Positions 3,467 to 61,979 are shown, numbered from the stretch's first letter. The stretch is 64,000 nucleotides of DNA from Betaproteobacteria bacterium (GCA_016713125.1 JADJPT010000014.1:5083-69082); one strand, 5' to 3'. Numbers and translations: made by a program. Notes: generated by a model not told the origin, from the letters alone.

Positions 3467-4371
3467 TCAGCGCTCCTTGACGGCGCGCAGGCGTCCGCGC
3501 GCGAACTCGATGAAGGTGTCGACCAGCCGCGAGCGAAAGCGCTCGCGCGGGTAGACCACCGAAGCTTGCGCATCAGGCGCGGAGCGAGCGGCACGGCCAC
3601 CAGCTGCGCGAGTTCGATCTCCTTGGCCACCGTGGCGCGCGACATCACGGCGAAGCCCAGTCCGGTGCTGACCAAGCCCTTGATCGCCTCCAGGCTGCCC
3701 AGTTCCATGACCACCTTGAGCTCCTCGGGCTTCACGCCATGCTCCTCGAAATAGCGGTCGGTGACCTCGCGCGTGCCCGAACCGGATTCGCGGCTGATGT
3801 AGGCATGCGGGGCGAGCTGTCGCGCGCTGGCCGACTTCAGCCTCGCCAGCGGATGTCCGGGGGCGCACAGGGCGCGCAATTCGTCCTCGGCGCAGACCTC
3901 CGAACTCAGCGCCGGCAGATGCGAGGGCGCCTCGATGAATCCCAGGTCCAGCGTGTGCTCGGCGACGCGGTTCTCTACGGTCTCCGAGTTGGCCACCACC
4001 AGGCGCGGCTGCACGCGGGGGAACGCCGACTTGAATTCGCCCAGTACGCGCGGCAGCAGGAACTCGGCGATGGTCATGCTGGCGCCGACCAGCAGCGGGC
4101 CGCCGACCTGCCCGGTCATTTCCTTGAGGCGGGTATCGAGCTCGGCCGAAAGGCCGAGAATGCGCTCGGCATAGTCGAGCACGATGTCGCCGGCGGGGGT
4201 CAGTGCGATGCGCCCGTGGCCGCGGTCGAACAGACGCGTGTTGAAGTGCTCCTCGAGCTGCTTGATCTGGAAGGTCACCGCAGGCTGCGTCATGAACAGC
4301 GCCTCCGCCGCCTTGGTGAAGGACAGATGCTTGGCTGCTGCGTGGAACACCTGGAGGCGCCGGTCGGCCAT
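3467..4371 (-). pseudogene. LysR-family transcriptional regulator, frameshifted near 3562-3570
   Basis: ORF 3412..4371(-) is LysR-like (HTH FTKAAEALFMTQPAVTFQIKQLE) up to ...VAVPLAPRLMR, then degenerates. The expected C-terminus ASVVYPRERFRSRLVDTFIEFARGRLRAVKER* is the tail of ORF 3467..4477(-) in another frame. This is consistent with a 1-nt deletion. Confidence 0.8.
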
Positions 4372-4570
4372 CGCTCTCGAACGCGCTGTTGCTCAGCCGG
4401 GTATTCAAGCATAAATCCACCCCGCATGCCCGCCTTATGACCTTTCCCCGCTCGACCGCCGGCACGGCTCGCTGCACATGACTTTCACGGGCGGCGTGTT
4501 ATAAAGCGCGCTGCCTTCCACAACGGAGCATCACCGGCACCCTCACCGGCGGCCGGCCGCAACGAATCGC

Positions 4571-5848
4571 GTGAGTCTCGGCTTCTACATCATCATGGCG
4601 GCGCAGTTCTTCTCGTCGCTGGCCGACAACGCGCTGCTGGTCGCCGCGATCGCGCTGCTCATCCAATCCGACTCCCCGGGCTGGCTCACGCCCTACCTCA
4701 AGTTCTTCCTCGTCATCTCCCACGTGGTGCTGGCGCCCTACGTCGGCGCTTTCGCCGACCGCCTGCCCAAAGGCCAGGTCATGCTGGTCAGCAACGCCAT
4801 CAAGATCCTCGGCTGTTCGCTGATGCTCTTCGAGGTCAACCCGCTGATCGCCTACGCCCTGGTCGGGCTGGGCGCCGCCGCCTACTCGCCGGCGAAGTAC
4901 GGCATCCTCACCGAGTACCTGCCGCCGACCAAGCTGGTGATCGCGAACGGCTGGATCGAAGGCCTCACCGTGGGCTCCATCATCCTCGGCACCGTGCTGG
5001 GCGGCGTCCTGATCAACCAGCGGGTGGCCAATCACCTGCTCGGTTTCGATCTCCCGCACATCGACACCGGCATCGACACGCCGGCTGAGGCGGCCATCAC
5101 GCTGATCATCCTGATCTACGCCATTGCGGCGTTCTTCAACGTGTATGTGCCGCGCACCGGGGCGCGGCTGCGCCCGCTGCCGGCCAATCCGCTGCACACC
5201 CTGGTCGACTTCGCCGATTGCGTGAAGCGCTTGTGGAGCGACAAGCTGGGCCAGATCTCTCTGGCGGTCACCACGCTGTTCTGGGGGGCGGGCGCCACCC
5301 TGCAGTTCATCGTCATCGAGTGGGCCAAGGTCAACCTGGGCTACAACCTGTCACAGGCGTCCATCCTGCAGGGGGTGGTTGCCTTCGGCATCGCGCTGGG
5401 CGCGGTGGTCGCCTCGGCCACGCTGAAACTGGACCGCGCCGTGAAGGTGATCCCGCTGGGCATCGCCATGGGCCTGATCGTGCCGCTGATGGTCGGCGTG
5501 CACACCCTGTGGCTGGCGGTGCCGCTGATGATCCTGATCGGCGGCCTGGCCGGCTATTTCGTGGTGCCCATGAACGCCCTGCTTCAGCACCGCGGGCACA
5601 ACCTGATGGGCGCCGGCCGCTCGATCGCCGTGCAGAACTTCAATGAGAACGCTTCCATCCTGGCCATGATCGCCACCTATTCGGTGCTGATCGGCCTGGG
5701 CCTGTCCATCGGCTGGGTGATCATCCTGTTCGGACTGTTCGTGGCCGGCACCATGACCATGGTGCAGATCTGGTTCAACGCCAATCGCAGGAAGCACCAC
5801 AAGGAAATCGAGGCGCTCCTGGCGATCGCGCGCTCGGAGACCCACTAG
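4571..5848 (+). CDS. lplT: lysophospholipid transporter LplT (MFS)
   Basis: ORF 4571..5848(+), 425 aa, GTG start. The sequence FSSLADNALLVAAIALL...APYVGAFADRLPKGQVM...AAAYSPAKYGILTE resembles E. coli LplT. It is a polytopic MFS protein. Confidence 0.8.
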   Translation: MSLGFYIIMAAQFFSSLADNALLVAAIALLIQSDSPGWLTPYLKFFLVISHVVLAPYVGAFADRLPKGQVMLVSNAIKILGCSLMLFEVNPLIAYALVGLGAAAYSPAKYGILTEYLPPTKLVIANGWIEGLTVGSIILGTVLGGVLINQRVANHLLGFDLPHIDTGIDTPAEAAITLIILIYAIAAFFNVYVPRTGARLRPLPANPLHTLVDFADCVKRLWSDKLGQISLAVTTLFWGAGATLQFIVIEWAKVNLGYNLSQASILQGVVAFGIALGAVVASATLKLDRAVKVIPLGIAMGLIVPLMVGVHTLWLAVPLMILIGGLAGYFVVPMNALLQHRGHNLMGAGRSIAVQNFNENASILAMIATYSVLIGLGLSIGWVIILFGLFVAGTMTMVQIWFNANRRKHHKEIEALLAIARSETH

Positions 5849-5868
5849 CGCGGCTGCCGGCCCGTGCC

Positions 5869-6357
5869 TCAGAGCACGACGGGCGCGTCCGGCAGTTCGT
5901 TGGGATTCTCGTCCAGCGGGGGAAAGTGGACGGCCAGCAGGTCACCGATGGCCGCCAGCCCCAGCAACGCACCCTGCTCGAACCTGCCCTCGGCAAATGC
6001 GCGCTGCATCTGGCCGCAGATGGTTTCCCAGGCCGTGGCGCCGACCCTGGCGTGTATGCCGCGATCGGCGACGATCTCCACGCGCCGGTCGGCGAGCAGC
6101 AGGTAGACCAGCACGCCGGCGTTGTCCTCGGTGTCCCACACCCCCAGCCGGCCGAACAGTTCGACCGCGCGCTGGCGCGAGCTCTGACCGGCGAGCAACG
6201 CGCCCAGCGGCAGGCCGCCCTCGACCACGAAGCGCAACTCACCGCGGTGGCGCTTCTCGTTCTCGGCCACGGCGCCCGCGATCGAGGCCAGCACGGCGCG
6301 CGGAAAGGCGCGTCTTGCCTGCCAGTCGTCCAACAAGAGATGTCTGATCCAGCGCAT
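5869..6357 (-). CDS. TPM-domain protein (TLP18.3/Psb32/MOLO-1 family)
   Basis: ORF 5869..6357(-), 162 aa. It is the last gene of the lemA-TPM-TPM operon. The sequence includes GVWDTEDNAGVLVYLLLADRRVEIVADRGI. Confidence 0.7.
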   Translation of the reverse strand: MRWIRHLLLDDWQARRAFPRAVLASIAGAVAENEKRHRGELRFVVEGGLPLGALLAGQSSRQRAVELFGRLGVWDTEDNAGVLVYLLLADRRVEIVADRGIHARVGATAWETICGQMQRAFAEGRFEQGALLGLAAIGDLLAVHFPPLDENPNELPDAPVVL

Positions 6358-6360
6358 GGC

Positions 6361-7242: not shown

Positions 7243-7256
7243 GGTGCCCGCGATCG

Positions 7257-7850: not shown

Positions 7851-7879
7851 GGTGAATCTCCTAGTATGAAACCTGGACT

Positions 7880-8671: not shown

Positions 8672-8673
8672 GC

Positions 8674-9135: not shown

Positions 9136-9154
9136 GCGCGGACCTTGCGCGTGT

Positions 9155-9856: not shown

Positions 9857-9935
9857 GCGATATTGTATCGGCTGGGGCGTGCCCCCTGCTTCGGCTATCA
9901 TTTCCGCCTTCGAAAACGGTCGCAGGAGACGGAAA

Positions 9936-12647: not shown

Positions 12648-12654
12648 ATACCCC

Positions 12655-13490: not shown

Positions 13491-14677
13491 CTAGATCGGC
13501 CGCCCGTCGGCACGCGCGCGCAGCAGGATCGGTGCAAAGCGCCATACGAACAGCACGAAGGCCAGCGCCCACAGCGCGCCGGAAACGGCGACCGCAGGCA
13601 GGTAGGCCGCCGGCCACAGCAGTGGCGTTGCCACACGCGCCAGCGCCGCCAGGTTGAGCAGCACGTAGCCGGCGGTTTCCGCCGCCCCGGGCGTCAGCGG
13701 CAGCCCGCTGTGGCCGCGCGCGGTGCGCGTCATCATGCCCAGCGTCATGCCGCCGACCGCACCCACGGTCAGCGCATGCGTGGCGGCGCTGGCCGGCACC
13801 AGGTCCAGCGCCGCGCCGGCACGCAGCGCGAGGTAGACGACGATCCAGGCGTAGGCCGCGTGCAGCACCCACACCAGCGGGTGGCGCAGCGTGCGCCAGG
13901 GCTTCCAGAGGGCCAGCCGCGCCGCCTGCGCCAGCGCCGCCAGCGCACAGACCGCCGCCAGCGCCGGCGCGGGCGCACCGCCGGCGTCCACCACCAGCAT
14001 GGCCAGCACGCTGCCCGGCGCGACGCGTTCCAGCCAGGGGCGCGCCGCGCCCCGCAGCCCGGCACGCCGTTGTTGGTGAACATGGGGATCACGCGCCCGC
14101 CCATCACCACCATCACGAACAGGATCAGGTCCAGGCCCAGCTGCAGGCCGAACTGCAGCGGCAGGTCGAGCACGCCGGCCATCGTCAGGTGAAAGACCAG
14201 GTTGGCCGCACCCATGCCCAGCAGCAGCACGACGAAAAAGTAGTTGCGTCGGTTGCGTGCGACGACCAGCGGCACGGCCAGTCCCAGCGCGGCGGCCAGC
14301 GCGAAGGCCGTATCGGCCGCCGCGGCCAGCAGCGGCCAGGGCGTGAGCACCAGCAGGCGACCGGCCAGCCAAAGGGCCGCGATGGCGGCCAGACGCCAGC
14401 CCGCGGGCGTGGGCTGCCCGCTCCAGTTACGTCCGGCGGTGAACAGGAAGCCGACGATCACGGCGAAGGCGAAGCCGAAGATCATCTCGTGCGCATGCCA
14501 CAGCGGCGAGCGCAGGAATGCGTGACCCAGCACGCCGGCGAACTCGGCCACCCACAGCGGCACGGAGATCGCCGCCAGTGCACCGGCCAGCAGGTAGAAC
14601 GGGCGGAAGCCCAGGTCCCAGAGCGCCATGCGGCGCGCTGCCGGGGTCTCGGGCTCGAGAATCGTCAGGCCAGCCAT
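13491..14677 (-). pseudogene. nnrS: NnrS family protein (haem/copper membrane protein of denitrification regulons), frameshifted near 14050-14057
   Basis: The N-terminal part is in ORF 13769..15037(-), from MAGLTILEPE to ...GGRVIPMFTNNGVPG. The C-terminal part LRGAARPWLERVAPGSVLAMLVVDA...LLRARADGRPI is in ORF 13491..14372(-). The junction reads ccgggctgcgg where ccgggcctgcgg would restore the frame. Confidence 0.8.
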
Positions 14678-24141: not shown

Positions 24142-24247
24142 GATCGTGCTCCTGTTCGTTCGATTTGCCGCCGCCGGCCCGGCGCTCAGCCGTTCAGGCT
24201 GAACGGCTTGGCCTGCGGGCCCCATACCTCGGTGCGGCGCACCTCGG

Positions 24248-25444
24248 TCAGTACATCCAGATCAGCGATACCCAGACGATGGCGTACATCAGCATGAAGG
24301 CGCTCGAGCGTATGCCGGTGAGGTCGACCAGCGCCCCGAACATGATGGGAAGCAGGAAGCCGCCCAGGCCACCGGCCAGCCCGACGATGCCGGACACCAC
24401 GCCGATGTTCTTCGGATACTCGTCGGAGATGTACTTGAATACCGAGGCCTTGCCGAAAGCCCAGGCCACGCCCATGACGAACATGAGTGCGGTGAACACC
24501 CAGACATTCAGCCCGATGTGGAAAGTCTTCGGTCCGTCGATGGTGGTGATGGTGAAATCGGTCTGCGGATAGGAAAGCAGGAACAGGCAGATCCAGCTGA
24601 CCCACAACACCCACCAGGTGACGCTGTGCGCGCCGTACTTGTCCGACATCCAGCCGCCGATCGCGCGCAACACCCCGCCGGGCAACGAGAAGCAGGCAGC
24701 GAGCAGGGCCGCCACGCGGATGTCCAGGCCGTACTCACCCACGTAGTACTGCACCATCCACAGCGCCAGCGCCACGTAGCCACCGAACACGATGCTGTAG
24801 TACTGGCAGTACTTCCAGATATTGGGATCCTTGAGTGCCTGCAGCTGCTCGCGCCAGGTGATGTGCGACTCGACCTTGTGGGACGGATCGCTGTAGGTGA
24901 AGAACCAGAACAGGATCGCGGTCACCAGCATGGCGACCGCATAGACCTGCGGCACCAGCTGCCAGCCCAGCGCCACGACGATCACCGGGGCGACGAACTT
25001 GTTGACCGCGGCGCCCGAGTTGCCGGCACCGAAAACGCCCATCGCGAATCCCTGCTGCTCGCGCCTGAACCAGCGCGCCACGTAGGGCGTGCCCACAGAG
25101 AAGGAGCCTCCCGCCACGCCGACGAACAGGCCGAGCACCAGGAAATGCCAGTATTCGGTCGCGTAGCCGATCAGCCAGATCGGCACGACGCAGGAGATCA
25201 TCAGCAGGAAGAACACGATGCGGCCGCCGAACTTGTCGGTCCACATGCCCAGCGGCACGCGGATCAGCGAGCCGGTCAGCACCGGGGTCGCGGTCAACAG
25301 GCCGAACTGCGTGGCGTTCAGGCCCAGGGTCTTCTTGATCGGGATGCCGATCACGCCGAACATCATCCAGATCGCGAAGCACACGGTGAATGCCAGCGTG
25401 CTGAACACGACGACCGAGATCTGCTGCTGCCTTGTGCTTGCCAT
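24248..25444 (-). CDS. narK: nitrate transporter, NarK1-type (MFS NNP family)
   Basis: Within ORF 24248..25585(-). The start is MASTRQQQISVVVFSTL (Met48). It is the first gene of narK1K2GHJI. Confidence 0.9.
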   Translation of the reverse strand: MASTRQQQISVVVFSTLAFTVCFAIWMMFGVIGIPIKKTLGLNATQFGLLTATPVLTGSLIRVPLGMWTDKFGGRIVFFLLMISCVVPIWLIGYATEYWHFLVLGLFVGVAGGSFSVGTPYVARWFRREQQGFAMGVFGAGNSGAAVNKFVAPVIVVALGWQLVPQVYAVAMLVTAILFWFFTYSDPSHKVESHITWREQLQALKDPNIWKYCQYYSIVFGGYVALALWMVQYYVGEYGLDIRVAALLAACFSLPGGVLRAIGGWMSDKYGAHSVTWWVLWVSWICLFLLSYPQTDFTITTIDGPKTFHIGLNVWVFTALMFVMGVAWAFGKASVFKYISDEYPKNIGVVSGIVGLAGGLGGFLLPIMFGALVDLTGIRSSAFMLMYAIVWVSLIWMY

Positions 25445-25724: not shown

Positions 25725-27649
25725 ATGCAGTACCCCACGCAGTTCTGGACCCAGTCGATCCTGGTTCGCATCGGCTTCGCGATGAGCCTGATCGCCATAC
25801 TGGCGCTGGCCTCCATCTCTCCAGTTCGACGGTGTTCACCGAACGCTCGGAAGGCAAGGCGGGCGCCATCAACCTGGCCGGGTCGCTGCGCATGCAGTCC
25901 TGGCAGCTTGCCTCCAGCGTGGCCAACGCACAGCTCACCGGGGACGAGCGCAGGAGAATCGTCGAACGCAACGTCGCCGAGTTCGAATCCCGCCTGTCCA
26001 ACCCCCTGCTGCTTGCCGGACTGCCGACCGAAGACGCCTCCGCGCTGCGCACAACCTATCGCGAAGTCAGCGCGCAGTGGCGGGACCTGATACGCCCGCG
26101 CGCCCTGCAGGCTGCCGAATCCCCGGCCGCGGCGAGCACCTCCGCCTTCCTGGCCGAAGTGGCGCCCTTCGTCTCCCGCGTCGACCACCTGGTCGGCCTG
26201 CTGGAGGAGGATCTCGAGGACCGCATACGCACGCTGCGCTTCTACCAGGGGGTGGCGCTGTTCCTGATCGTGTTCGTGATCTTCGCCACCATGTACCTGA
26301 TGCACACCCAGGTCGTGGCGCCGCTGGGTGATCTGCTGTCGTGCTCGCGCGCCGTGCGTCGCGGCGAGTTCGACGTGCGTGCCTCGGGCACCGGTGCGGA
26401 CGAACTCGGCCAGCTGGGCGAAGCCTTCAACTACATGGTCGAGGATCTGTCGCGCATGTACGCCAACCTGGAGGCACGTGTGGCCGAGAAGACCGAGGCC
26501 CTGGAGCAGACGAACCGGTCCCTGGAACTGCTCTACAACACCACGCGCACGCTGTCCGAACGAACCGTCACCAACGAAACCCTGACCTCGGTGCTGCGCG
26601 ACGTCGAACGCGTGATCGGCGTGCAGGCCGGCGTGATCTGCGCGCACGAGGCTGCGCAGGCCAGCGGCTTTCCGATTGCAGCCACGTTGCTCAACGATGA
26701 CGGGCGGCCTGCGCTGTGCCAGGAAACGCGTTGCGATACCTGCTTCGCGGCCGGCCATGTCCACGAGCACCATCTGCCTTCCGGCGGCCGCATGCTGTCG
26801 GTGCCACTGGTCGAAGCCGGCCACACCTACGGGGTGATGCCTCTTGCGTTGGCGCCCGGCGACCACCTCGAACCCTGGCAGATGAAACTCGCCGAAGCCG
26901 TAGGCAGCCACATCGGCGCCGCACTGGCGACCTCGCGCCGCGCCGAAGAACGCCATCGTCTGGCACTGCTCGAGGAACGATCGGTGATCGCACGCGAGCT
27001 GCACGACTCGCTTGCCCAGTCCCTGTCCTATCTGAAAATCCAGGTCACCCGTCTGCAGGCCATGCTGGGCCGCGATCCCGCCCGTCCGGAAGCCGACGCC
27101 GTCGTCGAGGAGCTGAAAGCCGGCCTGGCCAACGCCTACCGCCAGCTGCGCGAACTGCTCACCACCTTCCGACTGCGCATCGAGGGACGCGGCCTGGACA
27201 CCGCGCTGCAGGACACGGTGCAGGAGTTCGCACAGCGTTGCGGCGTGGCGATACGTCTGGACAATCGCCTGTCCGGCGTCGAACTGGCCGCCAACGAGGA
27301 GATCCACGTGCTGCAGGTGATCCGCGAGGCGCTGTCCAACGTGGAGCATCACGCCAAGGCGAGTCACGTCGACATCGCATTGTGGCTGGCGCCGGGCAAC
27401 CGCTTGCGCGTGCGCGTCGAGGACGATGGCAGTGGCATAGGCGAGGCGCTCTCTCCCACGCACCACTACGGGCTGACCATCATGCGCGACCGCGCCGCGA
27501 GCCTGCACGGCACGCTGAACGTCGCGCGCAGGGCCCAGGGCGGCACCTGCGTCGAACTCGAGTTCGCCCCGGCCACGCCGTTCGGCGAAGCCTCCGCCAC
27601 ACTGCAGGCCGGCACACGAGCACCGCGACTGCGACCAGCACGCTGCTGA
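25725..27649 (+). pseudogene. narX: nitrate/nitrite sensor histidine kinase NarX, frameshifted near 25818-25822
   Basis: The start MQYPTQFWTQSILVRIGFAMSLIAILALASIS (after GGAGG) is in ORF 25671..26090(+). The protein continues as SSTVFTERSEGKAGAINLAGSLRMQSW (P-box) in ORF 25664..27649(+). HAMP domain, H-box ELHDSLAQSLS and HATPase motifs are all present. Confidence 0.9.
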
Positions 27650-31940: not shown

Positions 31941-32066
31941 TTTTGTATCCCCCGAAAGTGAACGCACCGGCCCCGAGCCGGCAACTTGTAAATCATAGAA
32001 CGAAACTGCCGTCCGCAACGTGACAAAACGCACAACCTCCCTGATGCAAGGAGGGACTGCCAGCAC

Positions 32067-35015: not shown

Positions 35016-37236
35016 GCCTCCTCCAGCAGCTTGCGGTAATGGCCGCCTTTGATCGCCATCAAAGCATCGTGGCTGCCTTCCTCGACCAGGCTGCCTTCCT
35101 CGAGAACCAGGATGCGATCGCAATCGCGCACCGTGCTCAGGCGGTGGGCAATCACGATGCAGGTGCAGCCTCGCCGCCGCAGGTTGCGCTCGAGCTCGGC
35201 CTCGCTGGTCGTGTCCAGCGCGCTGGTCGCTTCGTCGAGGACCAGCACGCGTGGCTTGCCGACCAGCGCGCGCGCGATCTCCAGGCGCTGGCGCTGCCCG
35301 CCGCTCATGTTGCGGCCGCCTTCGCTGACCGAACCGTCGTAGCCCTGCGGACGGCTCATGATGAAATCGTGGATCAGCGCATCCTTGGCCGCGGCAATCA
35401 GGTCGCTCTCGGGAACCGTCGGATCCCAGAGCGTGAGATTTTCCCTGAACGTGCCCTGGAACAGCATGATGTCCTGATCCACCAGCGCCAGCGAGCCGGC
35501 CAGCCTCAGTCGGCTGTAGGCTTCGCGCGGCCGCTCGTCGAACAGGATCTCGCCAGAAAGCGGTGCATACAGGCCGGCCACCAGTTTTGCCACGGTCGAC
35601 TTGCCGCAACCCGAGCGGCCGACCAGCGCAATGCGCTCGCCCGGGGTCGCCACGACGGAGAACTCGCGCAGCAGCGGCTCGTCATTGGGGTTGTAGCCAA
35701 GTTCACGCCGCGCAACTCGATCTTCCCCGACAGCTTGGTCGGCTTTCCATCCACATCGTCCGCGACATGCAGCGGCACACCGCTGGCCAGCGGATCGCGA
35801 TCGTAGTTCAGCACGTCGTCGATGCGCTGCATGTCGCCGCGCAGGTGCTGTACTCGATCCATCAGGCCGACCAGGCCGACCGCCGGCGCCACGAACCCGT
35901 AGACCAGCCCCTGGAAGGCCACCAGCATGCCTATGGTCATGTGACCGTCGATCACTCGCAGCCCGCCCACACACAGGATCAGCGCCTCGTTGGCGAGCAA
36001 CAGGAATGCCGGCACCTGCCGGAAGTACAGCCCCAGGGTCTCCATGCGCTGATGCGCTTCGACGTACTGCGCGAGAAAGCCGGCGAACTTGGCGAAGAAC
36101 CCCGACTCCGAGGCGGTGGCGCGCAGGGTCTCGATCACCGACAGCCCGCTGGCCGCCGTGCCCTGCAGCTTGCCCTGCGCGATCGACAGCGCGAGGCTGG
36201 TTTCCTGGGTGCGCTGCGTGACCAGCTGAAACACGGCAACGTTGGCGATCACCACCGCCAGGCTGAGGAACGAAAGCAGCACGTCGTAGCTCAACATGAC
36301 GGCAAAGAAGAACAACGCCAGCATGCCGTTGACTACCGCGCGGGCCAGATCGCCGGTGATCACGCCGGCCACGTTGTCGTTGAGCATCAGGCGCCAACCG
36401 ATCTCGCCCGGTGCGCGTTGCGTGAAGAATGCATGCGGCAACTGCAGCAGGTGCCAGAAGAATCGGCTGGCCATGGCCAGCACGAGCTTGGTCTGCAGCC
36501 GCAACAGATACCAGCTCTGCAGCCATTTCAGCAGCACCTGCAGGGCTGCGGCCAGCGCCAGGCCGGCCAGCAGCGGCACCACCCAGGAATTCTGGCCGTC
36601 CACCAGGACGCGGTCGATGAACACCGAGGTCAGCACCGGGATCACCAGTCCCGGCACCACCATGAACAGGCCGGCCAGCATCAGGAAAGCGATCGCGGGT
36701 CGGTCGCCGCTCAGTCGCTTGAAGGCATTGCGGTAGATGTTCTCCGACTCCCCGCCCGGCTGGAAATCCGGTCCCGGTTCCATCGCCAGCACCACGCCGG
36801 TGAACGACTGCTCGAATTCGGCATTGGAGACCTGGCGACGCCCCCAGGCCGGATCGTTGATGTAGACCCGGTCGCCGTCGAAGCCTTCCAGCACCACGAA
36901 GTGGTTGAAGTTCCAGAATACGATGCACGGCAGCTTGAACTCGCGCAGGTCGGCCGGCTCCTTCTTGTACCCCTTGGCGAGCATGCCGTAGCCGCGCGCG
37001 GCCTTGAGCACGTTGCTGGCCTTGCTGCCGTCGCGCGTCACGCCGCAGCGCTGGCGCAGTTCCTCCAGCGACACGCGACGTCCGTAATGTCGCAGCACGA
37101 TGGAAAGCGCGGCAGCGCCGCACTCCAGCGCCTCCAGTTGCAGAACGACGGGCGTGCGCACCGGCCGCCTTCCGCCCGCCTTGCCGCGCAGCCGCGACCA
37201 AAACGCGCGCAGACGAGCTGCAAATGCGCTCAGCAT
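35012..37236 (-). pseudogene. NHLP-type bacteriocin export ABC transporter with N-terminal C39 peptidase domain, frameshifted near 35700
   Basis: ORF 35506..37236(-) carries the C39 domain and TMD up to KLSGKIELRGVN. The C39 residues are Cys in LEALECGAAALSIVL, His in NFNHFVVLEG and Asp in YINDPAW. The NBD, GYNPNDEPLLREFSVVATPGERIALVGRSGCGKST...LSGGQRQR...LVLDEATSALD, is in ORF 35012..37201(-). The junction gtgaacttggctac would be in frame as gtg aac ttt ggc tac. Confidence 0.9.
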
Positions 37237-37243
37237 GCGCGCC

Positions 37244-43815: not shown

Positions 43816-45226
43816 ATGTCCAAGTTGCTGATCAACGGCCAGTGGGTCGACGGCGTGTCCAGCCAGTCCCTGACCGACAAGTATCACGGTGCGGTGTATG
43901 GCGAGATGGCCGTAGCCTCCCCCGCACAGGTCGACCAGGCCGTCGCCGGGGCGCTGGCCGGTCAGCGTGACTCGACGCTGTCGCCCTACGAGCGCTTCCG
44001 GATCCTTGCCGAGTCGGCGCGGATCGTCGAAAGCCGCAGCGAGCTGTTCGTCGGCTTGATGCGGGACGAGGCGGGATTCACGCGCGCCGACGGCGAGAAC
44101 GAAGTGCGGCGCTGCGTCCAGACACTCGAACTCTCCCCCGAGGAGGCCAAGCGGCTGAACGGAGAGCTGGTGCCCATGCAGGCGGCCAGCGGGGTGAGGA
44201 ACCGCATGGGCTACACGCTGCGCGTGCCGCGCGGCGTGATCTGCGCGATCACGCCCTTCAATTCGCCATTGAACACCGTGGCCCACAAGGTCGCACCGGC
44301 CATCGCCGGGGGCAATTCGTTGGTGCTCAAGCCTTCCACATATACGCCGCTGTCGGCCGTGGAATTCTGCAAGGCCCTGCTGGACGCAGGTCTGCCCGCC
44401 GGCCTGCTGGCCCTGGTGCACGGATCGGGCACCACCATAGGACGCCAGTTGCTGGCCGACCAGCGCATCGCGTTCTACGCCTTCACCGGCAGCACCCAGG
44501 TTGGTCGCGAGATCCAGCAGGCTGCCGGCCTGCGCGGCATGCAACTGGAGTTGGGGAGCATCGCCAGCACCATCGTCTGCCACGACGCCGACGTCGAGAT
44601 GGCCATTCCCAAGATCGTCAACGCCGGCTTTCGCAAGGCCGGACAGGTGTGTACCTCGGTGCAGCGCCTGTTCGTGGATCGCAGCATCGCGGCAAGCTTC
44701 ATCCCCAGATTCGTCGCTGCGGCACGCGCAACCGGGCGGGCGATCCGGCAGACCGAAGACCATCGTCGGCCCCATGATCACCCGCCAGCATGCCGAGCGC
44801 GCCATGTCCTGGGTCGCCGAGGCCGTCGCCAAGGGCGCCGAAGTCCTGACCGGCAACAAGTGCGAGGGTTCTGTGATCGAACCGACCGTGTTGCGCGGCG
44901 TGAGCGCCGACATGAAGGTGGTCTGCCAGGAGATCTTCGCGCCGGTGGTCTCGATCATAGAGTTCGACCAGCTCGACGAGGCGGTGGCCTACGCCAATGC
45001 CCAGCCCTTCGGTCTGGCCGCCGGACTGTTCACTGCGGATCTCAAGACCGCCTTGCGCACTGCGCCGAAACTGAATTTCGGCGGCGTACACATCAACGAG
45101 GCTTCCAGCGCGCGCGTCGACATCATGCCCTTCGGCGGCGTCAAGGACAGCGGCTTTGGCCGTGAAGGCCCGTCCTACGCGGTCCACGAGATGACCGAAG
45201 AACGCCTGATCACCATCGCCTACTGA
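43816..45226 (+). pseudogene. NAD(P)-dependent aldehyde dehydrogenase, frame disrupted at about 44731-44758
   Basis: ORF 43816..45165(+) is ALDH-like up to ...FVAAARAT. The C-terminal part PKTIVGPMITRQHAERA...EIFAPVVSIIEF...PFGGVKDSGFGREG is in ORF 44501..45226(+). The intermediate third frame reads RAGDPAD. Two separate 1-nt deletions (aaccggg, gaccgaag) would restore ...ATRAGDPADPKTIVGPMI. Confidence 0.85.
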
Positions 45227-46489: not shown

Positions 46490-47802
46490 GTGATTCCAAA
46501 CACCCTGCTGGCGCGCGCCTTCCTGCTGATCGGGCTGCTGATCCTGGTCTCGCTGGGCGCCTCGTTCGAGATCTACCGCAGCCACCAGCGCGAGCCGATT
46601 GCCAACGAGATCGCCAAGCAGACGGTCAGCATCGTCAACATTACGCGCTCGGCCATCGTCAATGCCGATCCGCGCCGGCGCCTCGAGCTGCTGATCGAAC
46701 TGAACGAGAGCGAAGGCATACGCGTGCTGCCGGCGTCCCCCGGCGACGTGCTGGTTCCGGTGCCGCGCGATCCCCTTTACGACCTGATCGGCATGCGCGT
46801 GCGCGCCGCACTGGGCTCCGACACGCGACTGGCCTTCGCACGCAATGGCCTGGAGGGCTACTGGGTCAGTTTTCCCATCGACGAGGACGAGTTCTGGGTG
46901 ATGCTGGGCCGCGAACGCCTGGAACCGGATATCGCGCTGCAATGGCTGGGCTGGGCGCTGCTGGCGCTGTTGCTCTCCCTGGCCGGCGCCTGGCTGATCG
47001 CCACACGCATCAGTCGGCCGCTGGCCGTGCTCACGCGCGCGGCACAGCAGGTCGGGCGCGGCGAACGTCCGGCACCGACGCCCGAGGACGGGCCGCGCGA
47101 GATCGCCACCCTGGCATCGGCCTTCAACCAGATGTCGGCCGATCTCGAACGCCTGGAGCGCGACCGCGCCACCGTGCTGGCCGGCATATCCCACGACCTG
47201 CGCACCCCGCTTGCGCGCCTGCGCCTGGGGCTGGAGATGCTGGACGGCGAAGCGGAAATGCGCGATGGCCTGGCCTCCGACATCGAAGAGATGGACAAGA
47301 TCATCGGCCAGTTCCTGGCCTTCGCCAAAGGCGAGTCCGAGACACGGTCAGGACACGCAACTCGACGCTGGCGGCGGAAATCGCGCAGCGCTACGCCCGG
47401 CTGGGCAAGGTCGTGACGCACGCCGCATCCGGCACGCAAGCCGGAACGCTGCCGCTGGCTGCAATGGCCGTGCGACGCGCCATTGCGAACCTGGTGGACA
47501 ACGCCCTGCGCTACGCGGGAGAACCGGTGGAAATCGAGACGCGCCGCGAACCCGATCGCGCCGTCCTGGAGGTGCGCGACCGCGGTCCGGGCATACCGCC
47601 TGACCAGGTGGAGCGCATGAAGCAGCCTTTCACCCGCCTGGAGGCCGCACGCAGCGATGCAGGCGGCTCGGGCCTGGGCCTGGCCATCGTCGAGCGCGTG
47701 GCGCGACTGCACGGCGGCAGCCTCGAATTGCTGCCGCGCGAAGGCGGGGGGCTTGTGGCGCGGCTGGCGTTCCCGCTGCGCACCGCGCCACGGGAGGCCT
47801 GA
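46490..47802 (+). pseudogene. envZ: sensor histidine kinase EnvZ-like, frameshifted at about 47340-47375
   Basis: ORF 46490..47416(+) carries the TM segments, HAMP domain and H-box GISHDLRTPLARL up to FAKGESE. The ATPase domain, LAAEIAQRYARLG...NLVDNALRYAG...DRGPGIP...GGSGLGLAIV, is in ORF 46942..47802(+). Confidence 0.85.
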
Positions 47803-48221: not shown

Positions 48222-49485
48222 GCTTTCTCCGTAGGGTCCTGGTTGGTGCTGCAGAGGTAATCGTAGGCCGAGAGTGCGTGGGTCTTCACCACGTGCAGGA
48301 AGTCGTCCACGCTGACGTGCTCGTCGCTGCTGCCCATGCCGTGCGGCGGCGGTCCATAGACCACGGCGGCACGCCGCGCAGCCGCCACAGCCGCGCATCG
48401 GTGGCGCCGGGTGAAACCACGCGTGCCGGCACCAGTCCGGGACGCAGCATGCCGGCGTTGGCGCGCACGTGGTCCATCATCGGATGAAACGGCCCGCACC
48501 AGTTCGGCGGCGAGCCGATGATGACTTCGCACTGCGCACCGTGACGCGCGGCGATGGTCTCGATCTCGGCACGCACGGCCTCGAAATCGACGCCATTGGG
48601 TACGCGGATGTCGGCCTCGAACTCGCATTCGGCCGGGATCATGTTGACCTTCACCCCGCCCTGCATGCGGCCTATGCTGACCGTCAGCCTGCGGATCACC
48701 TCGGCAGCGCCGGGACCGTAGCCGCGGTCGATATCGGGCTTGGCCTCGTCCAGGGCGCGCGCAAGCTCTTCCGGCTCACGAGTGGGAAAGCGCTGTGGCA
48801 GCAGCAGCAACTCATCGACGATCTTCATGGCCTTGAGAACCGCGTTCTCGCTCATATGCACGAAAGCGCCGTGGCCACCTCGCGCGTGGGTGCGGAACTT
48901 CATCCACAACGGCCCCTTCTCACCGAAACGCACCGTCCAGGGGCTGCTCGGTTCACCGTTCAGGCAGCAGTCCCCCAGCACGCGCTCCGTGTAGCGCTCC
49001 ATCAGCCAGCGCGCGCCGTGCGGGCCGAAGGTCTCCTCGTCCGAGACCACGGTGAGCGTCAGTCTGCCGCGCAGCGCATCCCGGAACCGCAGCATGTACA
49101 GGTAGGTGAAAATGGAGGCCGTCGTACCGCACTTCATGTCGGCTGCGCCGCGTCCCCAGATCTTGCCGTCCTCCAGCGCCCCGCTCCAGGGGTCGCGCGT
49201 CCAGCCGGCCTCCGACTCCACGGCGAACACGTCGATGTGCCCGTTCAACACCAGGTGGGGACCCGGTCGACCGGTATCGAAGCTGGCGATGAAGTTCGGG
49301 CAGTCGGCGCGCGGCGCAATCTCCTCGAAGTCCACGCCGCGCTGCTTCAGATGGGCACGCACGAAGTCGGCCGCCGCAGTGGTGTCACCGGGCGGGTTGG
49401 GAGATTTGCTGCGCACGAACGCACGCAGGAAACCCACCAGCAGGTCACGGTCCGCTTCGATCTGGTGCAGCAGACGCTGTTTCAA
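48218..49485 (-). pseudogene. M20 family metallopeptidase (ArgE/DapE/ACY1 type), frameshifted near 48366
   Basis: ORF 48286..49485(-) is M20-like (NGHIDVF, GRGAADMKCG, SDEETFG) up to ...GATDARLWRLRGVP. The C-terminus AVVYGPPPHGMGSSDEHVSVDDFLHVVKTHALSAYDYL...* is in ORF 48218..48628(-). The junction gtgccgccgtgg would be in frame as gtg ccg gcc gtg g. Confidence 0.8.
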
Positions 49486-49687
49486 GGCAAGACTCCTGTT
49501 CGCTGCTCAAGTATGGTGCAGGCCGGCTTTCCGCAGTCTCACGAGTGCCGCGGGCTGGTGCTCATTGTGCAGCGGACCGGCGCCTGCCCGACGGGCCGGT
49601 TCGCTATTCCGGACAGCACTGCCGCGGGGCCGCTGCTAAACTGGATTCGCCATCCCCTCCTTCCGACAAGCAAACGAGGATACCGAC

Positions 49688-50086: not shown

Positions 50087-50087
50087 C

Positions 50088-51083
50088 ATGAATGCCGTCC
50101 GCAAGCAACGCAAGCCCCGTCCCGCTGCCAGCCTGCTGGCGGCGAGCCTCCTGTGTGCCTTCGCCCTGCCGGCTGCGGCGCAGTTTCCCAGCAAGCCGAT
50201 CCGCATCATCGTGCCCTACACGGCCGGCGGCACCTCGGAGACCATGACCCGTCTGGTTGCCGACCAGATGAGCACCGCGCTCAAGCAGCCGGTGGTGATC
50301 GAAAATCGGCCGGGCGGCGGCACCACCATAGGGGCGGCGGTCGTCGCCCAGGCCCCGGCCGATGGACACACATTGTTTGTCAACGCCTCGAGCTTCCTGA
50401 TCAACGCGCATCTCATGTCCAAGCTGCCGTATGACGCGGCCAGGGACTTCATGCCGGTCACGCTGGCAGCCTCCAATCCGCATGTTCTGGTCGCCTTCTC
50501 CGGATTGGGCGTCACCAGCGTGAAGGATTTCATGGCCATGGCGCGCAGCAAGGGCAAAAGCATGTCCTACGGCTCGTTTGGCAACGGCAGTTCCGGCCAC
50601 CTGGCCTTCGAACTGCTGAAGAAGGCCTACAACTTCGACATGCAGCACATCCCCTACAAGGGGTCGCCGCAAGCACTGGCCGACGTGATGGGCGGCAACC
50701 TGCAGGCCATGTTGACCGACCTGCCGGCTGCGGTACCGCAGGTGAAGGCCGGCAAGCTTCTCGGCCTTGGCGTCGCGGCGGAAAAGCGCAGCCCGGCGTT
50801 GCCGGACATGCCGACCATCGAAGAGGCCGGCGGCACGAAGTTCATCTCGCGCTCCTGGTTCGGCTTCCTGGTGCGCTCGGGGACGCCGCCGGAGGTGCAC
50901 AAGGTTCTCAACCAGGAGATCGTGCGCGCGCTGCGGAAGCCGGAGGTCAAGGCCCGGCTCGCCGACCTGGGCATGGACACCTACGGCACCAGCGCCGAGG
51001 AATTCGACGCGTTCATGAAAAGCGAGTCGGCGCGCTTCGCCGACGCGATCAGTTCTCCGGCACCAAGATCGACTGAGGTATAG
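50088..51083 (+). CDS. Bug family tripartite tricarboxylate transporter substrate-binding protein (TctC-like)
   Basis: Within ORF 49965..51083(+). The start is MNAVRKQRKPRPAASLLAASLLCAFALPAAAQFPSKPIRIIVPYTAGGTSE, a typical Bug N-terminus. The last ~10 codons may be affected by a 1-nt deletion: gcgatcagttctcc versus gcg atc aag ttc tcc, which would give ...AIKFSGTKID*. Confidence 0.9.
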   Translation: MNAVRKQRKPRPAASLLAASLLCAFALPAAAQFPSKPIRIIVPYTAGGTSETMTRLVADQMSTALKQPVVIENRPGGGTTIGAAVVAQAPADGHTLFVNASSFLINAHLMSKLPYDAARDFMPVTLAASNPHVLVAFSGLGVTSVKDFMAMARSKGKSMSYGSFGNGSSGHLAFELLKKAYNFDMQHIPYKGSPQALADVMGGNLQAMLTDLPAAVPQVKAGKLLGLGVAAEKRSPALPDMPTIEEAGGTKFISRSWFGFLVRSGTPPEVHKVLNQEIVRALRKPEVKARLADLGMDTYGTSAEEFDAFMKSESARFADAISSPAPRSTEV

Positions 51084-52553: not shown

Positions 52554-54659
52554 GCCGCCGCCTCTCGCGCTGCGGCGCTCGTTCGCCCCGGGCCGTGTTT
52601 CAGGTCGAGACGCAGGTCCGCCGCGAGGCCCTGCGGCACCTGATGCGCGATGTACAGGATGCCGGCCCGGTCCTTGAGCCGATTCACAGTCTGCGCGAAG
52701 CGCTCGGCGGTCTCGACGTCGAGGTTGGACGTTGCCTCGTCGAAGATCAGGATGCGCGGCCGCCGGATCACCGCGCGCGCAATCGCCAGGCGCTGCTTCT
52801 GCCCGCCGGAAAGCCCCACGCCATGTTCGCCCAGACGCGTGTTGTAGCCTTGCGGCAGCGCCTCGATGACATCGTGCAGCTCGGCGATGCGGCACGCATG
52901 CACGGCGTCCTCGAAGCCCGCCTGCGGATTGGCCGCCACCAGGTTCTCGTACACCGTGCCCGAGAACAGCACCGTTTCCTGGGGCACCACGCCGAATCCT
53001 GCACGCAACTCATTGGCCGCCAGATGGCGCAAATCTCGGCCGTCGAGCAGTATGCGGCCCTCGCTTCAGGGCGGATAGAAGCCGAGCAGCAGGCGCGCCA
53101 GCGTGCTCTTGCCGCTGCCCGAAGGACCGCACAGCACCACCAGCTTGCCGGACTCGAGCTCGAGATGCAGCCCGCGAAACAGATAGGGCTGCGCAGCGCC
53201 GTAGCGAAATCCAAGATCCGAGATCAGCAATCGGCTGGCCGCTTGGGGCGCCTGCGCGGGCTGCACGGCTTGCGGCTCCGGCGCCACGTCCATGACGTCC
53301 GCCAGGCGGCGCACCGCAATGCCGGCCTGCTGGTACTCCTGCCACAACCCCGCCAGGCGCAGCACCGGCTGGGAGAGACGCCCGGCGAACATCTGAAACG
53401 CCACCAGCATGCCGATGGTGAAGCCCGTATTCTGCATGACCAGCATGGCACCGGCGCACAGGATGGCAAGCGTCATGGCCTGCTCCAGCGCGGTGGCCAG
53501 CACGTTGTAGCCGCTGGAAAGTCGCCGCGTCGCGAAGCCAGCCGCCAGGGATTCAGCGAGCAGCGCGTCGTAGCGCGCCTGCAACTGCGGCTCCATCTGC
53601 AGGGACTTCACGGTTTCGATGCCGGACAAGTACTCGGTGGCAAAGGCCTGATTGCGGGCTCCGAGCAGAAACTGCCTGTTGAGCCGCTCGCGGAGCATGG
53701 GCGTCACCAGCAGGCTGGCCGCAGCGATCAACACCAGCAGGGGTCAGCGCGATCAGGGTCAGCTGCCACGAGTACCAGTACATGGCGACCAGGAACACCA
53801 GCAGGAAGGGCAGATCGAGAAGCGCCGTGACGGCCGCACCCGCCAGAAACTCGCGCAGGGTCTCGACCGCATGCAGCCGCGCCACCAGCGTACCGGTGGG
53901 CCGTTGTTCGAAGTACTGCAGCGGCAGACGCAGCAGATGCCGGAACAACTGGCTGCCCAGCACCGCGTCGACGCGATTTCCGGTGTGCAGAACCAGGTAC
54001 TGGCGCAGCCAGCTCAGCAAGGCGCCGAACACCAGGAACAGCGCGAGGCCGACCGCGATGGCGGCCAGCGTGCTCTGCGTGTGATGCACCACCACCTTGT
54101 CGATCACCACCTGCGTGAACAGAGGCGTGGCCAGTGCGATCAGCTGGATCGCCAGCGAAGCCAGCAGCACGTCGTGCCACACGCGCCGATGGCGCAACAG
54201 CTCCTTGGCGAACCAGCGATACCCGAAACGGTGCGTTTCGGCCGCCTCACCCGGTTCGGCGTCACGCGCATCCGGCTCGCGCGCGATCGTCCAGCCGGTT
54301 GGTTCGAGGCGTGCGGCGAAACCCGCACGCGATTCGGTCTGCGCTGCGGCCTCCCCGGCGCGGAAGTACATGATGCGTGCGGCGTCGGCGCGCACGATCA
54401 GCAACGGTTCGCCTACGCTCTCGCAGCTACGCTCGAAGGCGACAACGGGAAACACCGCGTGGCTGGATTCGAGGTCCGCAGTTCCGACTTCGTGGAAACG
54501 CAGGCTCAGCAGCCCGCCGGCATCGAGCAGGCTGTACATGGAGTACGGCGGCGGAAACTGTTGCAGCACCAGGGAAGGATCCCAGGGGATGCGGTGCAGG
54601 CGGCACAGGCTGCCGAGCAGCCAGACGAACGCATCGCGCGTCAACGACTGCCCGGTCAT
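52550..54659 (-). pseudogene. HlyB-type type I secretion ABC permease/ATPase with N-terminal C39-like domain; one frameshift (about 53742) and one in-frame TGA (53066-53068)
   Basis: The start MTGQSLTRDAFVWLLGSLCRLHRIPWD follows an AGGAGG motif. The TMD up to WQLTLIAL is in ORF 53553..55868(-). It continues as LLVLIAAASLLVTPML...[20 protein letters not shown] in ORF 53066..53734(-). A TGA follows, and the same frame resumes as [21 protein letters not shown]...LSGGQKQRLAIARA...LIFDEATSNLD (ORF 52550..53032). Confidence 0.85.
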
Positions 54660-54844: not shown

Positions 54845-56043
54845 TCAGTCCAGCCCGTGTGCCAGATCGCGCTTCAGATCTTCGACCGACTCCAGCCCGA
54901 CGGCCAGGCGGATCAGGCCCTCGGAAATCCCTGCCGCGGCACGCGCCTCGGGAGTGATGCGCCCATGCGTGGTCGTTGCCGGATGCGTGATGGTGGTCTT
55001 GGTGTCGCCCAGATTCCCGGTGATCGAAATCAGGCGCGTCGAGTCGATCACCTTCCAGGCCGGTTCGCGACCACCCTTTACAACGAAGCTGACTATGGCG
55101 CCGCCGGCCTTCTGCTGGCGCCGGGCAAGCGCATGCTGCGGATGCGATTCGAGAAAGGGGTAGTAGACGCGCTCCACCTTCGGATGCGCCTCCAGCCAGC
55201 GCGCGACCTCGAGGGCGGCCTGCGACTGGGCCTGCATGCGCAATTGCAGAGTCTCCATGCCCTTCAGGATCACCCAGGCATTGAATGGCGAGAGCGTCGG
55301 ACCGGCCGTGCGCAGAAAGCCGAAGATGCCGTCCATGACGATGGCCTTGGGACCGACCACGGCCCCGCCCAGAACGCGGCCCTGCCCGTCCAGGTACTTG
55401 GTGGCCGAATGTATCACCAGGTCGGCACCGAAATCGATCGGCCGCTGCAAGGCCGGGCTGCAAAAGCAGTTGTCGACGGCCAGCAATGCGCCCACGCGCT
55501 TGGCGACCGCGGCGATCGCCGCGATATCGGATATCTGGGTAAGCGGATTGGACGGCGTCTCCAGGAAGAACAGCCTGGTCCTGCCCGGCTTGACGGCCTT
55601 CTCCCACTCCGCGATGTCGGTGGGCGAAACGTAGGTGGTTTCCACGCCGAACCGGCCGAGGATGTTCGAGTACAGCTGCACCGTCAACCAAACACAGCGT
55701 TGGAGCACACCACGTGATCGCCGGCCTTGAGCAGCGCCATCGACATGGCGAGGATGGCCGACATGCCGGACGCCGTGGCCACGCAGGACTCTCCACCTTC
55801 CAGCGCGGCCAGCCGCTCCTGGAATACGCTGACGGTGGGATTGGTGAAGCGTGAATAGACGAAGCCATCCTGACCGCCCGTGAAGCGGCCGCAGGCCTCG
55901 GCGGCGGACTCGAAAACGAAACTCGAGGTCAGGTACAGGGCCTCGGAGTGCTCGTTGAACTGGCTGCGGCGTATGCCGGCGCGCACGCCCAGGGTGGAAA
56001 TGTCGTACTGCTCTTCGCTGCGATCTTCGTTGTGATCGTTCAT
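54845..56043 (-). pseudogene. metZ: O-succinylhomoserine sulfhydrylase MetZ, frameshifted near 55684-55689
   Basis: The N-terminal 119 codons, MNDHNEDRSEEQYDISTLGVRAG...HVVCSNAVFG, are in ORF 55684..56109(-). The rest, (S)TVQLYSNILGRFGVE...HSATKYLDGQGRVLGG...LIRLAVGLE, is in ORF 54845..55708(-). The junction ggttgacggtg would be in frame as ggt tcg acg gtg. Confidence 0.85.
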
Positions 56044-57750: not shown

Positions 57751-57776
57751 GGGTAGGGACTCCGGGCGGCTAGGTG

Positions 57777-58268: not shown

Positions 58269-58278
58269 TGCAAAACGG

Positions 58279-59016: not shown

Positions 59017-59034
59017 GATCTCAGCGTATTACGG

Positions 59035-60297: not shown

Positions 60298-60303
60298 GCG
60301 CGG

Positions 60304-61179
60304 CTAGTTGGAGGAAGGCTCGGCCGGCAGGCCCTGCAGCAGGGCGAGCAGCGAGGCGAGCTTGTCGCGCATCTGGCGGCGGTCGACGATCATGTCGATC
60401 GCGCCCTTCTCGAGCAGGAACTCGGAACGCTGGAAGCCCTCGGGCAGCTTCTGGCGCACGGTCTGCTCGATCACGCGCGGACCGGCGAAGCCGACCAGCG
60501 CCTTGGGCTCGGCAATCACCACGTCACCCAGGAAGGCGTAGCTTGCCGACACGCCGCCGGTGGTCGGGTCGGTCAGCACGGAGATGAACGGCAGGCCTCG
60601 CTCGCCCAGGTCGGTCAGCGCGGCGGTGGTCTTGGCCATCTGCATCAGCGAGCTCAGGCCTTCCTGCATGCGCGCCCCGCCGCTGGAGGTGAACACGATG
60701 AACGGCAACTTCTGTTCGATCGCCACGCGCACACCTCGCACGAAACGTTCGCCAAGCACCGAGCCCATGGTACCGGCCATGAAGTCGAATTCGTGGGCCG
60801 CGGCCACCACGCCGATCGACTTGATCGAACCCTGCAGGACGATCATCGACTCGGTCTCCCCGGTATTCTCCTGCGCCTCGGACAGGCGCTCAGGGTAGCG
60901 GCGCGAATCCTTGAACTTCAGACTGTCTACCGGCAGCACCTCGGCGCCGATCTCGAAACGGCCGTCCTCGTCTAGCAGGCCTTCGAGCCGTGCCCGCGCG
61001 CCGATGCGCTGGTGATGTCCGCACTTCGGGCAGACATTGAGATTCTTCTCCAGGTCCGTGCTGTAGAGCACCGCGTCGCAGGACGGGCACTTGGTCCACA
61101 GTCCCTCGGGCATCTGACGACGCGCGCCGCCCTCTGCGCGCTTGATCTTGGGCGGAAGAAGTTTCTGCAGCCAGCTCAT
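60304..61179 (-). CDS. accD: acetyl-CoA carboxylase carboxyltransferase beta subunit
   Basis: Within ORF 60304..61425(-). The start is [13 protein letters not shown]. It has the zinc ribbon CPSCDAVLY...CPKCGHH and a carboxyltransferase domain. Confidence 0.95.
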
Positions 61180-61180
61180 G

Positions 61181-61979
61181 TCAGGCGTCCAGCGCAGCCC
61201 GGATCGGGCGCAGCAGATCCTTGACGCGCGCCGTGGCGTCGCCGCCCGCGGCCGATTCGATCTCCTGGATGATGCGGCTGCCGATGACCACGGCGTCGGC
61301 GATCTTTCCGATCGCCACCGCGGATGCCGCGTCGCGGATGCCGAAGCCGACGCCGATCGGCAACCTGGAGGCCGCGCGCAGTTTGGGCAGATGCGCGGCC
61401 ACGTCCGAGGTATCGATGCTGGCACCTCCGGTGACGCCCTTCAGCGACACGTAGTAAAGGTAGCCGCTGCCCACTTTCGCCACTGCGCGTATCCGCGCAT
61501 CCGTGGAGGTCGGCGCCAGCAGGAAGATCGGGTTGAGACCGTGCTTCGCGCACAGCGCGGTGAAGTCCTCGCATTCCTCGGGCGGGTAATCCACGACGAT
61601 CACGCCGTCGACTCCAGCCCCGGCGGCCTCGGCGACGAAAGCGTCCACACCCATGGCTTCGATCGGATTGGCGTAACCCATCAGCACGATGGGCGTATCC
61701 GCGTCACGGCTGCGGAACTCGCGCACCATGCGCAGCACGTCCTTCAGGCCCACGCCATGTCTTCAATGCCCGCTCGGCCGCGCGCTGAATCGCCGGGCCG
61801 TCTGCCATGGGATCGGAGAACGGCACGCCGAGTTCGATGATGTCGCAGCCGCTCTCGACCAGGGCGTGCATCATCGGCACCGTGCTCGCCGGGCCGGGGT
61901 CGCCGGCCATGATGTAGGGGATCAGCGCCTTGCGTCCGGCTGCGCGCAGGGCCTCGAAGCGTTGCGGGATGCGCGACAT
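61181..61979 (-). pseudogene. trpA: tryptophan synthase alpha subunit, frameshifted near 61758-61763
   Basis: The N-terminal part, [28 protein letters not shown]...[25 protein letters not shown], is in ORF 61704..61979(-). The rest, (H)[15 protein letters not shown]...[10 protein letters not shown]..., is in ORF 61181..61753(-). The junction ttgaagacatggcgtg has one extra base relative to ttg aag cat ggc gtg. The 799-nt span equals 266 codons plus 1 nt. Confidence 0.9.

Follow-up and report, generated by a model that had tools for sequence, protein, structure and literature searches.

Gene-splitting small indels in a 64-kb betaproteobacterial contig segment probably reflect consensus or assembly error

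Pseudogenes formed by reductive evolution are well known from Sodalis lineages, Bordetella pertussis and Mycobacterium leprae. Changes of reading frame inside genes are also familiar from programmed frameshifting, as in prfB and dnaX, and from phase variation through homopolymer or simple sequence repeat (SSR) switches. A technical counterpart exists in the gene-fragmenting insertions and deletions (indels) of long-read assemblies and metagenome-assembled genomes (MAGs), a documented artefact (10.1101/285049; PMC9262707; PMC12007338) by which indels affect 25-80% of human genes in three long-read assemblies (Watson, 10.1101/285049); bacterial assemblies from Oxford Nanopore Technologies (ONT) reads are about 99.95% accurate, and nanopore consensus errors are biased to long homopolymers (PMC11232133). 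Here a stretch of 64,000 nucleotides (nt) assigned to Betaproteobacteria bacterium (GCA_016713125.1, JADJPT010000014.1:5083-69082; hereafter the window, whose own positions are used throughout) was analyzed, in which 15 of about 58 genes (about a quarter) are disrupted, mostly through small indels that place the two parts of one protein in two reading frames.

The frame breaks are best read as indel-type consensus or assembly error, with a probability of roughly 0.87 from the sequence comparisons described below. The lesions are private to the window, show no signature of selection and are clustered, and their reversion restores the genes; the technical origin, like any platform assigned to it, is what we infer from these observations. 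Small indel errors would have arisen in the making of this record, whether in the read consensus, in assembly or polishing or in later handling, at a rate of ~0.35 events per kb (roughly Q34-35), and, the errors being indels rather than substitutions, each would split an open reading frame (ORF). The underlying organism would then almost certainly carry intact copies of all affected genes.

Conspecific contigs were collected mainly by exact-protein look-ups. The OmpR protein led to four contigs with shared gene order and ~98.4% nt identity, namely three ENA YUYA23-1 metagenome scaffolds and NCBI GCA_964267625.1, and look-ups with CvpA, an acyltransferase and a tartrate dehydrogenase added a JGI contig, Logan contigs and a wastewater-metagenome contig. 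The tartrate dehydrogenase contig, needed for coverage of the left half, was reached through a homologue search (P0001 100% identical), and exact-protein look-ups with NarG, NarI, the TPM-domain protein and the PpiC-type protein gave no match. The comparison with these contigs spans window positions 4256-64000, where between one and five independent conspecific assemblies cover each site; ENA scaffold_607 is the sole covering relative for NarK1, the cargo gene of a secretion locus and its C39-peptidase ABC exporter (C39-ABC). Projected onto the window, all contigs shared 97.1-99.7% nt identity with it. The window (G+C 63-71% across 2-kb bins) is colinear with the relatives, with no insertion sequence (IS) elements, gene-scale deletions or inserted elements, and its 569 private substitutions mark it as a genuinely distinct strain. 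The organism is an uncultured Burkholderiales-type betaproteobacterium that has also turned up in other metagenomes, wastewater among them. Identity to the conspecific contigs formed a mosaic, with 99.5-99.7% in some blocks, 98.4% in others (the blocks contrasted being 25.6-31.4 kb and 55-64 kb versus 35.7-56 kb and 4.3-19.9 kb) and 97.1% to JGI contig L015, a pattern consistent with recombination inside a micro-diverse population. In scaffold_607 an N run, a scaffold gap, falls in an HlyD-family gene and gives rise to a spurious 526-amino acid (aa) call (L001 15266-16846) overlapping the TctC gene; the protein has 460 aa in the other relatives.

Frame breaks were detected with a codon-usage model trained on long ORFs and run as a seven-state Viterbi path. 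Same-strand frame switches without a stop codon in the upstream frame lay at 3563, 14056, 18737, 25818, 31753, 35699, 44756, 47340, 48369, 53740, 55691 and 61759. This was matched in tblastn searches with intact conspecific proteins as queries, where each flagged gene gave two high-scoring segment pairs (HSPs) in two frames: NnrS split at query positions 214/209, NarK1 into 1-421 and 423-442, NarX into 1-31 and 33-630 and ABC702 into 1-307 and 308-702, with positions 1-321 of 329 covered for the TctC/Bug protein. Translation in two frames at the junctions showed one protein carrying on in the other frame, as for NarH (...NGGWVRKG / NGRIEPRQGG...) and TrpA, whose first-frame sequence ends ...AAERALK at the junction before the protein resumes in the other frame. 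The pieces on the two frames corresponded to NCBIfam model positions 1-67 and 67-491 of TIGR01660 for NarH, and 1-67 and 67-247 of TIGR00262 for TrpA. In the relatives every flagged gene is a single ORF with the expected Pfam domains, and in the comparable region 14 of 54 genes were disrupted in the window versus 0 of 54 in the relatives (Fisher p=4.6e-5). Several other frame changes were rejected as frameshifts, namely 48234 (the boundary between the M20 and SnoaL-like genes), 52587 (the HlyD460/ABC702 boundary) and nine more (five at 6.4-9.9 kb and those at 2395, 10999, 12625 and 13242) that are ordinary gene boundaries at stop codons matching the gene calls of relatives or orthologues. The 15 disrupted genes are listed in Table 1, narL counting through its start codon and ABC702 carrying two lesions.

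Table 1. Lesions in the window, their state in covering assemblies, product lengths in amino acids (aa) and percentage aa identity after repair, followed by the genes of the secretion locus.
Feature	Position (nt)	Strand	Lesion in the window	Covering assemblies with the other allele	Intact length in relatives (aa)	Repaired window product
LysR-family regulator	3562..3563	-	1-nt deletion in Leu codon before ...SVVYPRERFRSRL; last 26 aa shifted to other frame			301 aa after one inserted base
nnrS	14039..14040	-	single C deleted (run length 1)	3/3 (extra C)	395	395 aa
narH	18736	-	T inserted (TT>TTT)	2/2	506	506 aa
NarK1 C-terminus	24223..24248	-	24248 -C removes last 21 aa; 24223 +C / 24225 -G pair	scaffold_607	442	442 aa, 100%
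narX	25818..25821	+	two 1-nt insertions 3 nt apart: +T (25818, non-templated), +C (25821)	2/2 (both)	630	630 aa, 99.8%
narL start codon	27616..27618	+	ACG for ATG; private substitution at 27617, no indel	3 (ATG)	219	remainder of NarL 100%
cargo gene (double-glycine leader, K/D repeats)	31752	-	T inserted (TT>TTT)	scaffold_607	250	100%
C39-peptidase ABC exporter (C39-ABC)	35698..35699	-	single G deleted	scaffold_607	741	99.9%
aldehyde dehydrogenase (ALDH)	44731..44752	+	two C deletions (CCC>CC) at 44731 and 44752, 21 nt apart	4/4 (both Cs)	470	470 aa, 99.8%
RisS/EnvZ-like sensor kinase	47351..47366	+	47351 +G, then -CG after 47365	4/4	437	437 aa, 99.3%
M20 peptidase	48366..48367	-	C deleted (CC>C)	4/4	422	422 aa
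intergenic pair	49610..49619	.	49610 +C, 49619 -G, 9 nt apart, net zero	3/3
TctC/Bug-family binding protein	51050..51051	+	A deleted (AA>A), last 8 aa lost	3/3	329	329 aa
ABC702 transporter	53066..53068	-	non-templated 3-nt insertion TCA = in-frame TGA directly after Walker A	3/3	702	702 aa
ABC702 transporter	53740..53741	-	+G with adjoining private substitutions	3/3	702	702 aa
metZ (O-succinylhomoserine sulfhydrylase family)	55685..55686	-	single G deleted	5/5	399	399 aa, 100%
trpA	61760	-	non-templated T inserted between G and C	3/3	265	265 aa, 99.6%
secretion locus	31187-40179
cargo gene	31187-31940	-
ABC982	32067-35015
C39-ABC	35012-37236
HlyD-like	37244-38521
OEP	38518-40179

The initial annotation, made from the sequence alone, had listed genes split over two frames, and this was confirmed entry by entry with the Viterbi path, NCBIfam models, tblastn and conspecific alignment; aligning the split genes to relatives, which it had advised for placing the indels, gave the exact lesions. 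Its positions fell within a few nt of the lesion except for nnrS, which was off by 16 nt, and its title counted 12 conserved genes plus the cargo gene where its table held 11 plus the cargo gene. Two cases that it had offered as merely possible, at the end of the Bug gene (about 51050) and at the missing narL start, proved to be a real deletion and a real start-codon substitution, and the two ALDH deletions that it had suspected about 20 nt apart were both found. Every entry was real, but the list had missed the NarK1 C-terminus, the TGA insertion at 53066-53068 and the intergenic pair at 49610/49619.

Some of these lesions call for comment. The LysR-family regulator lies to the left of the conspecific coverage, and its orthologues were taken from a scan of genome contigs with the N-terminal part of the protein (aa identity at most 81% among the matches listed). 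GTDB orthologues of 301 aa read ...PRLMRKLSVVYPKERFRSRL..., and 11 GTDB orthologues of 301-303 aa, ~70-80% identical, all read ...RLxRxLSVVYPKE[K/R]FRSRL..., the same sequence being found in the second frame of the window, which points to a 1-nt deletion at ~3562. In agreement, the main frame ceases to match the NCBIfam models ~30 positions before the models end. In another public MAG, MFD02832.bin.2.128 of GTDB (CAWJNP010000025.1), the orthologue of the window gene at 1025-2389 aligns in two pieces in two frames, which suggests the same kind of frameshift problem there. For narL, whose position 27617 counts among the private non-synonymous sites with at least three covering assemblies, no in-frame alternative ATG, GTG or TTG was found. 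The insertion at 53066-53068 puts a stop codon in frame, so that the apparently separate 172-codon ORF at 52550-53065 is the C-terminal part of ABC702. Near the C-terminus of NarK1, the changes at 24223 and 24225 amount to a one-codon CAT/ATG swap (the two codons being reverse complements of each other) that may be a natural multi-nucleotide variant, and the intergenic pair at 49610/49619 could likewise be natural variation.

All 21 small indels in the region of conspecific coverage were absent from every covering relative, and at the sites covered by two to five assemblies the intact allele was present in all of them; no lesion was common to the window and any retrieved relative. Repair of the window by 22 edits (the indels, the LysR base and the narL T) restored all 15 genes to the exact lengths of the relatives or orthologues, each as one full-length HSP, and the 14 repaired genes that could be compared with conspecific proteins shared 97.7-100% aa identity with them, reaching 100% for MetZ, NarK1, NarL and the cargo protein. 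Public gene calls contained neither of the aberrant products, those of ALDH and C39-ABC, as expected from a source outside that collection. Two scans of the whole collection of JGI metagenome contigs, for either allele at the ALDH pair and at the narH site, returned zero matches and hence say nothing on allele frequency.

The private substitutions gave a very different picture from the indels. Among 506 private coding substitutions, 389 were synonymous and 117 non-synonymous (dN/dS ~0.11). Under neutrality ~27% would be synonymous, 71% non-synonymous and 3% stops. The ratio was alike in disrupted genes (113:40) and in undisrupted ones (276:77), and in the 8.2 kb downstream of lesions it was 44:12, indistinguishable from the rest (p=0.87, Fisher) and far from neutral (p=3e-16). 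No non-synonymous excess was seen either when the private non-synonymous and synonymous counts (117:389) were set against polymorphism among the relatives (130:372; p=0.34), and none of the 506 was a nonsense substitution inside a gene, where ~14 would be expected if unselected. The private substitutions are thus strongly purified, downstream of the lesions too, and the lack of non-synonymous excess together with the lack of nonsense means that the unselected changes are almost purely indels. Of these, 19 out of 21 lie in coding sequences (CDS), and none of the 19 is a multiple of 3 nt except the TGA insertion. Indels varying among the relatives in otherwise colinear CDS are multiples of 3 or are compensated within a few nt, for example at 6722, 7824, 14579/14582 and, just upstream of a start codon, the pair 6454/6464; divergent blocks in two contigs depart from this, in gca15 at 38.7-39.5 kb and in L019 at ~9.5 kb. 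At 7824 the window itself carries a private in-frame 3-nt deletion (GCC) in a CDS, the extra codon being present in all three relatives, which looks like ordinary natural length variation, unlike the frameshifting events.

These counts bear directly on the possibility that the indels are real, in which case a recent burst of frameshifts, reflecting either incipient degradation after a lifestyle change or a frameshift-prone mutator, would have turned about a quarter of the genes of the segment into fresh pseudogenes. Such a burst could account for lesions of diverse type that are all inactivating (frameshifts, an in-frame TGA insertion, loss of the narL start) in what is a genuinely distinct strain, but it is improbable in view of the missing nonsense substitutions and non-synonymous excess, and of purifying selection persisting in full downstream of the lesions. 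The mixed lesion spectrum to be expected of gene decay is not seen in the window, where one start loss and one TGA insertion stand beside the indels in a colinear sequence free of IS elements and larger deletions; the events also pair up within 25 nt or less, the biosynthetic genes trpA and metZ are among those hit, and the aberrant ALDH and C39-ABC products are recorded nowhere else. Real replication slippage concentrates in runs of 4 or more bases, as seen in mutation-accumulation spectra, whereas no indel in the window lies in such a run and some of the insertions are non-templated. Highly improbable, too, is a version in which the indels are real and extremely recent, with about one frameshift per 3 kb in one strain accumulating too fast for a substitution signal to follow. 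Were it true, the cause would be a frameshift-specific mutator, exposure to a mutagen or the first moments of genome degradation, and inactivation would have struck nitrate respiration, the synthesis of tryptophan and methionine and several transporters all together.

The distribution of the indels along the window was far from random. Six adjacent pairs lay no more than 25 nt apart, versus ~0.15 expected, and none of 100,000 random placements gave six (P<1e-5). Sequence context showed no comparable bias: 5 of 10 single-base deletions fell in runs of at least 2 bases (null 0.43, p=0.43), and 7 of 9 insertions copied a neighbouring base (null 0.49, p=0.08), the non-templated insertions being those at 25818, 61760 and 53066-53068. 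The runs that were hit were all of 3 bases or fewer, with no event in the 334 runs of at least 4 bases or the 59 of at least 5, and no common motif was seen in the contexts of the lesion sites. The contexts are not slippage-like. The initial annotation had described many junctions as length changes in short homopolymers, which is true as a description (CCC>CC twice, CC>C, AA>A, TT>TTT twice) but without statistical enrichment, so that a homopolymer-driven error model found no support and the context was indistinguishable from random; in the absence of such enrichment a platform, unpolished long-read or other, is not inferable from context. Its proposal of sequencing or assembly error in place of mass gene death is supported by lesion privacy, repair, purifying selection, the lack of nonsense and clustering.

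The same contexts bear on programmed or phase-variable frame changes, in which the junctions would be recoding sites or repeat-slippage contingency loci. Beyond the mere existence of +1 and -1 frame changes nothing speaks for this, and its probability is practically negligible: every conspecific contig has these genes as uninterrupted ORFs, none of the sites falls within a repeat tract or a run of at least 4 bases, no motif is common to the sites, and several genes need a shift of +2 or -2 or carry two events. Programmed frameshifting and phase variation were rejected on the intact orthologous ORFs.

The pairing of indels raises a narrower question about the kind of artefact, since paired events could mark places where locally different haplotypes were merged in a consensus over co-assembled strains and would then not be raw read errors. 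The identity mosaic described above (99.5-99.7%, 98.4% and 97%), the metagenomic origin of the relatives and the private substitutions near some lesion pairs (e.g. 53732-53741 and 47344/47351/47365) would fit such merging. It is nevertheless unlikely, given that most lesions stand alone, as changes of one base with identical sequence around them (e.g. in metZ, trpA and the cargo gene), that no relative carries an alternative haplotype at the paired sites and that substitutions near indels are only weakly enriched (5 observed versus 3.7 expected within 10 nt). With enrichment this weak, substitution clusters at indels are not supported as a sign of local low quality either.

Several points weigh against the interpretation as consensus or assembly error. 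The error is deduced from assembled sequences and not observed at read level; the LysR lesion is polarized by orthologues of ~80% identity outside the conspecific coverage, and those of NarK1, the cargo gene and C39-ABC by just one relative each. The random, non-homopolymer context is atypical of ONT consensus errors (PMC9262707, PMC11232133), although this weakens a platform-specific label and not the artefact reading as such. The narL change from ATG to ACG fits poorly: being a substitution, in a record otherwise without substitution excess, it is left unexplained by an indel-error process and, taken as a random error, would have a probability of a few per cent, and the same low probability applies to a random insertion at 53066-53068 that happens to be an in-frame TGA. 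Either change may be true variation of the strain, a rare error or the result of another processing step.

The secretion locus illustrates the practical side of these errors. In its cargo protein of 250 aa a double-glycine leader (…ELDDAELEQVSGG) precedes a long repeat region rich in Lys and Asp, and the C39-ABC of the relatives carries the domains Peptidase_C39, ABC_membrane and ABC_tran. The locus is intact on scaffold_607, while GCA_964267625.1 has different genes upstream of the cNMP-binding gene, and the secretion locus therefore looks like a strain-variable island. At window positions 38750-39550 the outer-membrane-factor gene on contig 15 of GCA_964267625.1 (L002) is highly divergent, with dozens of mutually compensating small indels versus the window and the ENA scaffolds, and this stretch is probably the edge of a replaced island or a recombined allele. 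Both the cargo and the C39-ABC sequence must be read from the frame-corrected sequence, in which the cargo is identical to the scaffold_607 protein. Automated annotation will miss or break up about one gene in four of this segment, the cargo gene included, so that frameshift-aware annotation is needed. For the same share of genes, any gene calls, pathway reconstructions or pseudogene counts taken from the uncorrected contig will be wrong; the organism would, for instance, be taken for an auxotroph for tryptophan or methionine, or nitrate reductase would be recorded as missing. The value of the observation is one of quality control, as a data-quality warning and not a biological feature. More generally, conspecific metagenome contigs can separate artefact from pseudogenization without recourse to reads, through lesion privacy, synonymous to non-synonymous counts downstream of lesions and clustering.

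Compared with programmed frameshifting and contingency loci, the window events share the single-nt frame change inside a CDS, but the sites are not conserved and lack a slippery or repeat tract, and the orthologues are uninterrupted. The likeness to the pseudogenes of reductive evolution lies in the many interrupted metabolic and regulatory genes, themselves conserved, in a genome more than 98% identical to free-living relatives; unlike those, the window is free of nonsense substitutions, of inserted IS elements and of larger deletions, its dN/dS is not raised, and its lesions are unshared, paired and non-templated. The indel errors of long reads (ONT or PacBio continuous long reads, CLR) differ in their concentration in homopolymers, whereas insertions and deletions are balanced in the window, whose events also comprise a 3-nt insertion and the substitution in a start codon. 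They resemble the window events (10.1101/285049; PMC9262707; PMC12007338) in the dominance of indels with essentially no substitution excess and in ORFs split over two frames. The proportion of window genes affected (~25%) is comparable with the 25-80% of human genes reported by Watson, the window accuracy of ~99.965% stands close to the ~99.95% of ONT bacterial assemblies (PMC11232133), and in both cases the errors are private to one assembly and are removed by comparison with a close reference.

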